Positions 10,037 through 10,364 of a stretch of 64,000 nt of DNA are shown here, piece after piece. Within the stretch, counting starts at the first letter, position 1. Every line of letters starts with the position of its first letter. Both the position numbers and the translations under genes were made by a program. The notes under the pieces were generated by a model. It had not been told where the DNA came from, searched no databases, and saw nothing but the letters and a program-made list of their open reading frames with translations. Source of the DNA: Candidatus Bathyarchaeia archaeon (GTDB lineage: Archaea > Thermoproteota > Bathyarchaeia > 40CM-2-53-6); NCBI GenBank assembly GCA_035656295.1, contig DASRSU010000025.1, positions 65,543-129,542 of the forward strand, in the 5' to 3' direction.

Positions 10037-10142
10037 TCAAAGAGAATCTTGCGCGAACGTCTCTCTAAGGGACCAAAGTGGACTCGCCTGCGCTGGCAGA
10101 ATAAGGTGCACCTTTGAGTAACGGCACGTCAGGCTTCTTTCT

Positions 10143-10276
10143 TGGAGCCGGGGGTGGGAATTGAACCCACCTTAACCATCTTTTTCGTAGATGTTTACTA
10201 CGGGTTGCTACGAGGCATGTTCTGCAGCCCGTCGCCTGAACCAATCGGCCCTCGGTGGCAGGATGCCAACCCCGGC
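10143..10276 (-). tRNA. tRNA-Cys(GCA) with three introns (10251-10268, 10206-10221, 10171-10194)
   Basis: Removing 18, 16 and 24 nt gives a 76-nt cloverleaf: GCCGGGG/CCCCGGC acceptor, U73, encoded CCA, loop CT-GCA-GA, T arm GTGGG-TTCAATT-CCCAC. Each junction folds as a BHB or relaxed BHB. Confidence 0.9.
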
Positions 10277-10364
10277 CTCGTATGGCCCCCGGCAGAATCG
10301 CCGAAGCCGGCTGAACTGTATAAGCTTGTTGAGAAAGGATCAGAGTTCTGCGTCGTGGTTGAGA

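Follow-up and report, generated by a model that had tools for sequence, protein, structure and literature searches.

Introns at non-canonical positions and multiple introns, excised at bulge-helix-bulge (BHB) motifs and numbering up to three per gene, have been described in the archaeal tRNA genes of Thermoproteales (PMC4033280; PMC4090602), and complementary leader/trailer sequences accompany the split and permuted tRNA genes of Nanoarchaeum, Caldivirga, Thermofilum and Cyanidioschyzon (PMC4033280; PMC3978253). In the split and permuted genes the added sequences pair with each other, which allows a BHB motif to form, and they are removed by the splicing endonuclease. The tRNA transcripts of Nanoarchaeum equitans are reportedly leaderless and RNase P is said to be absent from this organism; its acceptor-strand sequence is reported to stand at a fixed distance from the promoter, about where transcription begins, and to form the mature 5' end.

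The minus strand of the window (the whole 64,000-nt stretch of DNA that was analysed) contains a tRNA-Cys(GCA) gene with three introns (8/9, 37/38 and ~47/48), which, as in the multi-intron archaeal tRNA genes, are protein-spliced introns with relaxed BHB motifs, the host here being a member of Bathyarchaeia and not of Thermoproteales. Two endonuclease-domain ORFs (C1:333289-333546 and C8:647447-647686) are present in the genome that holds the window (G000), as in the hosts of the broad-specificity (alpha-beta)2 enzymes, and the endonuclease would be of that subunit type. The tRNA-Cys gene carries a copy of the acceptor strand in its leader, which the published accounts of multi-intron tRNA genes (PMC4033280; PMC4090602) do not mention, and a literature search retrieved no report of a tRNA leader that repeats the acceptor strand. 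As in split and permuted tRNAs, a discarded, non-tRNA part of the precursor would pair in such a way that a BHB motif can form, but in this gene the added strand has the sequence of an exon strand and is predicted to bind the 3' acceptor strand of its own tRNA, and RNase P is expected to remove it. The gene also resembles the leaderless tRNAs of Nanoarchaeum equitans in having an acceptor-strand sequence at a fixed promoter distance, about where transcription begins. In that organism this sequence reportedly becomes the mature 5' end; G000, by contrast, encodes an RNase P RNA (RF00373 match over the full model, 111.5 bits, C1:3619-3933), and a second copy of the strand follows downstream.

The tRNA-Cys gene was missed by ARAGORN and by Rfam at the gathering threshold, and Infernal gave a weak partial match (19 bits) at the locus. 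We set the exon/intron limits by comparison with intron-less tRNA-Cys of related families, and the exons sum to 76 nt including the CCA. Of the ~37 or more tRNA genes in the whole genome, only 15 score high enough for the Rfam tRNA cut-off, since most carry one to three introns at non-canonical positions.

Read 5' to 3' on the minus strand, the locus begins with a TATA-like box, cTTATAca (10317-10324, first T at 10323), which is the putative promoter of the gene; the box sequence AAGCTTATAC is conserved in every ortholog of genera g1 and g2. Other tRNA genes of G000 lack the promoter word AAGCTTATA, so no promoter-distance model based on a single motif could be built. A variable stretch that is probably mostly untranscribed follows (10294-10316), and its columns average 52% identity to the majority base in 21 of the 44 orthologous genes discussed below. 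This stretch includes a GC-rich hairpin, GCCGGCTTCGGC (10311-10300), which lies after the TATA box and before the first acceptor-strand copy, ahead of the point where transcription is predicted to start; among the orthologs it is found only in G000. The two copies of GCCGGGG come next: R1 (10287-10293), the leader copy, and R2 (10270-10276), which constitutes tRNA positions 1-7 and is the 5' acceptor strand joined to the tRNA body, with a spacer, GCCATACGAG (10277-10286), between them. U8 (10269) was assigned by the comparison with the intron-less relatives, which read GCCGGGG-T-GGCCGA, and is followed by the 8/9 intron (I2, TGGCATCCTGCCACCGAG, 18 nt, 10251-10268), whose inner helix varies with compensatory changes. 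The remainder of the gene is composed of an exon with positions 9-37 (10222-10250: D arm, 5' strand of the anticodon stem and anticodon GCA), the canonical 37/38 intron (16 nt, 10206-10221), whose boundary can slide by 1 nt, an exon with positions 38-47 (10196-10205), a variable-loop intron at ~47/48 (24 nt, 10172-10195, inner helix CATC/GATG, boundary approximate) and an exon with positions 48-76 (10143-10171: T arm, 3' acceptor strand CCCCGGC at 10153-10147, U73 and the encoded CCA). Both the 37/38 and the variable-loop introns are absent from the g15 orthologs.

The initial annotation had drawn attention to the duplication of GCCGGGG 17 nt upstream of the acceptor strand, and both copies are indeed present, R1 at 10293-10287 and R2 at 10276-10270; its distances from the TATA box, 30 nt to R1 and 47 nt to R2, are likewise correct when counted from the first T at 10323. 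An exact copy of a 7-mer within ~25 nt upstream of any of 35 tRNA genes is expected by chance ~0.05 times per genome. In the related families compared, tRNA-Cys likewise has GCCGGGG as its acceptor strand.

The duplication is shared by relatives. We searched 105 genomes of the order with the pattern GCCGGGG-N4-30-GCCGGGGTT (R1-N4-30-R2-TT), which matched in 45 genomes, a reversed control pattern giving 5 matches. Family f1 accounted for 43 matching genomes out of 58 (g1, g2, g3 and g15) and family f10 for one; three further g15 genomes have the pattern with C as the first base of the intron, and one f6 genome (G037) has GCCGGGA as R1, a change restricted to position 7, where A66 of its 3' strand could pair with neither version. 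In total, 44 distinct tRNA-Cys genes were collected from families f1, f6 and f10. R1 is identical in 43 of them and differs by one base in the remaining one, whereas the spacer ranges from 4 to 13 nt with many indels. R1 is thus conserved while its flanks drift, and this is not chance. R2, including G1, is identical in all 21 genes tabulated, the pattern behind the 44-gene set having required the R2 sequence; the end of the 8/9 intron (...CACCGAN|GGCCGA) was in the search pattern too, and its constancy is not independent. A second match in one genome (G033, C8:62109) was discarded as a chance occurrence in seemingly protein-coding sequence with no tRNA features, and an extra match in another (G018:C44) is not a tRNA-Cys and was rejected as an ortholog.

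The presence of R1 follows that of the 8/9 intron. Among 401 genomes of the class, the signature of this intron is found only in families f1, f6 and f10; R1 is present in every inspected tRNA-Cys gene with the intron and is missing from the five intron-less tRNA-Cys genes that were read in related families. This co-occurrence may rest on only one to three independent events. Five g3/g4 genomes without the pattern are uninformative, as a search for tRNA-Cys itself found none in them. The suggestion of the initial annotation that a leader duplication could capture how introns arise does not agree with these data: the duplication is not recent but old and selected, spans three families and always accompanies the 8/9 intron.

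We consider it rather likely that R1 is a spare 5' acceptor strand, carried in the leader and later removed by RNase P, and that the gene has three introns and not four. In archaeal promoters, transcription starts about 28-34 nt past the first T of the TATA-like box. R1 lies 28-34 nt past this T across genera, the distance not being strictly fixed (30 nt here, 31 nt in the other members of the genus, 28 nt in g15 and 30-34 nt elsewhere), and judging from this distance transcription probably starts at or just before R1. A leader of ~17 nt is likely, because the 47 nt from the TATA box to R2 exceed the 31-43 nt found for other tRNA genes of G000 (counted by eye). A pyrimidine precedes R1 at position -1 in 19 of 21 genes and, with the G at +1, would resemble an archaeal initiator. 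In the precursor, R1 is modelled as pairing with the 3' acceptor strand CCCCGGC, which would make R2 available both to G10-C11 and to the 3' flank of the 8/9 intron. These pairings would build the BHB motif needed by the splicing endonuclease, a motif that is incompatible with the normal acceptor stem: C3-G5 of R2 pair with CCG, and G1C2 with G10C11, in addition to the inner hairpin. After ligation, R2 would take over the 3' strand and RNase P would cut off R1 and the spacer just before R2, so that the mature 5' end would be G1 of the second copy.

We computed partition-function foldings of 21 tRNA-Cys precursors, within a model limited to secondary structure. In these, the 3' acceptor strand pairs with R1 with a probability of 0.97 and with R2 with a probability of 0.00, while R2 pairs with the flank of the 8/9 intron (0.57 for the outer helix G1C2/G10C11 and 0.59 in total for the central pairs). 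When R1 is left out, the pairings of the splice motif drop to ~0 and R2 is found in the acceptor stem (0.96). The foldings with and without R1 suggest that R1 acts as a stand-in that holds the 3' strand. Even after full splicing, R1 keeps an advantage of ~5 kcal/mol over R2 for the 3' strand in nearest-neighbour energies. Secondary-structure energies thus do not account for the hand-over from R1 to R2, which would need tertiary structure or capture by RNase P. Compensatory changes between R1 and the 3' strand were not observed among tRNA-Cys genes, in which the acceptor stem never varies and offers no such test. The only variants seen are consistent with this pairing, namely A6/G6 opposite U67 in tRNA-Leu and A7 opposite the unpairable A66 in G037; no double compensatory change was seen.

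The same layout recurs in other tRNA genes of G000. The tRNA-Leu(GAG) gene (C8 ~768205, minus strand; locus L063, ~768040-768300) has R1 (GCGGG[A/G]G), a spacer of 14-19 nt, R2 (GCGGGAG) and a 7/8 intron, whose BHB motif consists of a central CGGG/C[C/U]CG helix, the bulges AGU and UGU and a compensated inner helix. The two copies are not able to pair with each other and R2 alone adjoins the inner helix, which makes R2 the spliced exon of this gene. In the predicted fold R1 closes the molecule on the 3' strand, and the spacer sequence GCCTGG, complementary to the D-arm region, provides the outer helix of the BHB motif, in a manner that would be similar to the pairing of discarded sequences in split and permuted tRNAs. 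Intron loss in this gene is accompanied by decay of R1. Ten orthologs with the 7/8 intron, including members of the sister genus g2, all show complete 7/7 pairing between R1 and the 3' strand (with A6 or G6 facing U67), whereas none of ten orthologs from one g1 clade, in which only the 7/8 intron has been lost, retains 7/7 pairing, R1 having decayed to GCGGGCA, ACGGGAA, GCGGGAC, ACGGGAT and other forms. These intron-loss orthologs still contain the D-loop intron and retain a leader of ~20 nt at the same place.

In the tRNA-Phe(GAA) gene (C8:854680-854900, locus L102), R1 (GCCGAGG) is exact in 12 of 15 orthologs, the spacer measures 2-7 nt in 14 of 15, and pairing between R1 and R2 is impossible. 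Its first intron is located in the D loop, with a splice motif that uses G7-U12, and since R1 is here present without an acceptor-adjacent intron, the link between R1 and intron is looser than for tRNA-Cys and tRNA-Leu. In G000 and in one g2 genome, the tRNA-Phe copy has a mismatch at position 7 and a GGT extension that pairs with A73-C74-C75. As the copies in tRNA-Leu and tRNA-Phe cannot pair with each other, R1 of these genes is not an exon bounded by a BHB motif of its own. A fourth gene, the tRNA at C1:359216 (C1:359100-359420, locus L066; intron at ~9/10), has a leader, TGGCGGGTCT, whose complement is found in the final 10 nt of the gene, discriminator and CCA included, in a register that does not match the acceptor stem. 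All four elements start 28-34 nt past the first T of a TATA-like box, those of tRNA-Leu and tRNA-Phe (R1-spacer-R2) at ~29-32 nt and the leader of the C1:359216 tRNA at 30 nt. Altogether, complementarity of -17.4 kcal/mol or better between the leader and the 3' end of the same gene occurs in 5 of 35 tRNA genes, where non-cognate pairs give an expectation of 0.25; among the five, C19:1256 is probably a chance case, since its acceptor is palindromic. A spare strand is not obligatory, as the tRNA-Ser gene of the same genome (C8:993200-993520, locus L064) has an 8/9 intron with a clean BHB motif (central CGGG/CCCG) and a leader without one.

This tRNA-Ser gene also fits another explanation, which we regard as unlikely, yet as the best of those that compete with a spare strand serving the splice motif: R1 could be a leader element with some other task for which pairing with the 3' end is needed, for example masking the CCA/acceptor end from nucleases or from premature aminoacylation, or delaying RNase P until the 5' quarter of the tRNA has been spliced, with no part in forming the splice motif. 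The tRNA-Phe gene, in which R1 is present despite a first intron in the D loop, is consistent with such a task, and so are the leaders of tRNA-Phe and of the C1:359216 tRNA, which extend their pairing to the discriminator and CCA. An element of this kind would not be expected to decay when tRNA-Leu loses its 7/8 intron and keeps the D-loop one, nor to be found in tRNA-Cys only together with the 8/9 intron, and the dependence of the predicted splice-motif pairings on R1 in the foldings also argues for a role in splicing.

A genuine fourth intron at 7/8 is more doubtful still. R1 would then be exon 1, possibly leaderless with a 5'-triphosphate, and the spacer together with R2 (17 nt here, 11-20 nt elsewhere) would be excised by the splicing endonuclease at a relaxed bulge-helix-loop built on a CCGG/CCGG helix. 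U8 would be a one-nucleotide exon, which is unusually small to our knowledge, and the two adjacent introns would have to be removed one after another, as simultaneous cutting would release U8 as a single nucleotide that could not be ligated. The location of R1 at the predicted transcription start suits this explanation, and so does the perfect 4-bp central helix (CCGG, 10292-10289, with CCGG, 10275-10272), in which symmetrical cuts 2 nt beyond the helix on each strand, after G7 of each copy, would give GCCGGGG|U. The features listed by the initial annotation, namely the 17-nt segment, the CCGG/CCGG helix and the CC/GG inner stem, are all present in the sequence. Nevertheless, the central helix and the bulges are automatic, since the duplicated GCCGGGG contains the palindrome CCGG, and they are not independent evidence for a BHB motif; the inner and outer helices fail to provide it. 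An inner CC/GG helix occurs in 8 of 18 g1/g2 orthologs, limited to a g1 subgroup whose spacers have the form GCCNNNCNAG; the spacers of g3 and g15, 4-7 nt long, cannot form it. The outer helix would consist only of G.U, Y-G and U.G pairs, that is, G1.U plus pairs with leader positions -1 and -2, which are upstream of the predicted start. In g15, the start of the 8/9 intron is able to pair with the leader at positions -4 to -1, a point in favour of the fourth intron. No covariation was seen between leader position -2 and the third intron base, which pair in only 4 of the 7 genes whose 8/9 intron starts with TGA. In this respect the putative 7/8 intron, without conserved flanking helices, is unlike the introns of known multi-intron genes.

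The foldings bear on the fourth intron in two ways. The R1:R2 helix has a mean ensemble probability of 0.000 in the 21 genes, before as well as after removal of the 8/9 intron, which disfavours a hairpin of the two copies. On the other hand, it is R1 and not R2 that remains on the 3' strand once the 8/9 intron has been removed, as would suit R1 as the mature strand, and within the secondary-structure model this persistent preference after splicing is the best remaining argument for a fourth intron. Against it, R2 with its G1 is conserved to the same degree as R1, a constraint not required of intron sequence, and tRNA-Leu and tRNA-Phe have the same duplication with an R1:R2 helix that is impossible. 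Between the four-intron tRNA and the leader duplication proposed in the initial annotation, the evidence thus favours the latter, in the modified form of a selected spare strand, and the former is weak. Two related arrangements, a single large intron from R1 to G9 and R1 as the 5' strand of the 8/9 splice motif, were rejected, as position 8 would then be filled by whichever base follows R1 (G, T, A or C).

A neutral, functionless tandem repeat of the start of the gene, tolerated because RNase P removes the duplicate, is very improbable: short tandem duplications do arise easily and RNase P cleavage at the inner copy would yield a normal tRNA, but R1 is intact in 43 of 44 genes from three families next to near-random bases and a spacer with indels, the same layout is found in three different tRNAs, and R1 decays in the tRNA-Leu genes without the intron.

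If R1 is a spare acceptor strand, it would be a simple cis-acting answer, included in the precursor itself, to the folding problem posed by acceptor-adjacent introns, for which the splice motif and a very stable acceptor stem compete for the same seven bases. It would also help to explain the persistence of awkward intron positions in intron-rich archaeal tRNA genes. Leader duplicates of this kind can mislead tRNA annotation, giving a wrong 5' end or phantom "acceptor-stem introns". Were the fourth intron true, the gene would exceed by one the three-intron maximum per archaeal tRNA gene reported in PMC4033280, with a leaderless 7-nt exon 1 joined to the one-nucleotide exon U8 and introns removed in a fixed order.

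We also noticed the trailer of the tRNA-Cys gene, AGAAAGAAGCCTGACGTGCCGTTACTCAAA (10113-10142, minus strand), which starts directly after the CCA. At least its first 23 nt are common to G000, G019, G020, G012 and G041, the remaining orthologs having unrelated sequence from the first base past the CCA, and it could be the boundary of an element inserted at the 3' end of the tRNA.
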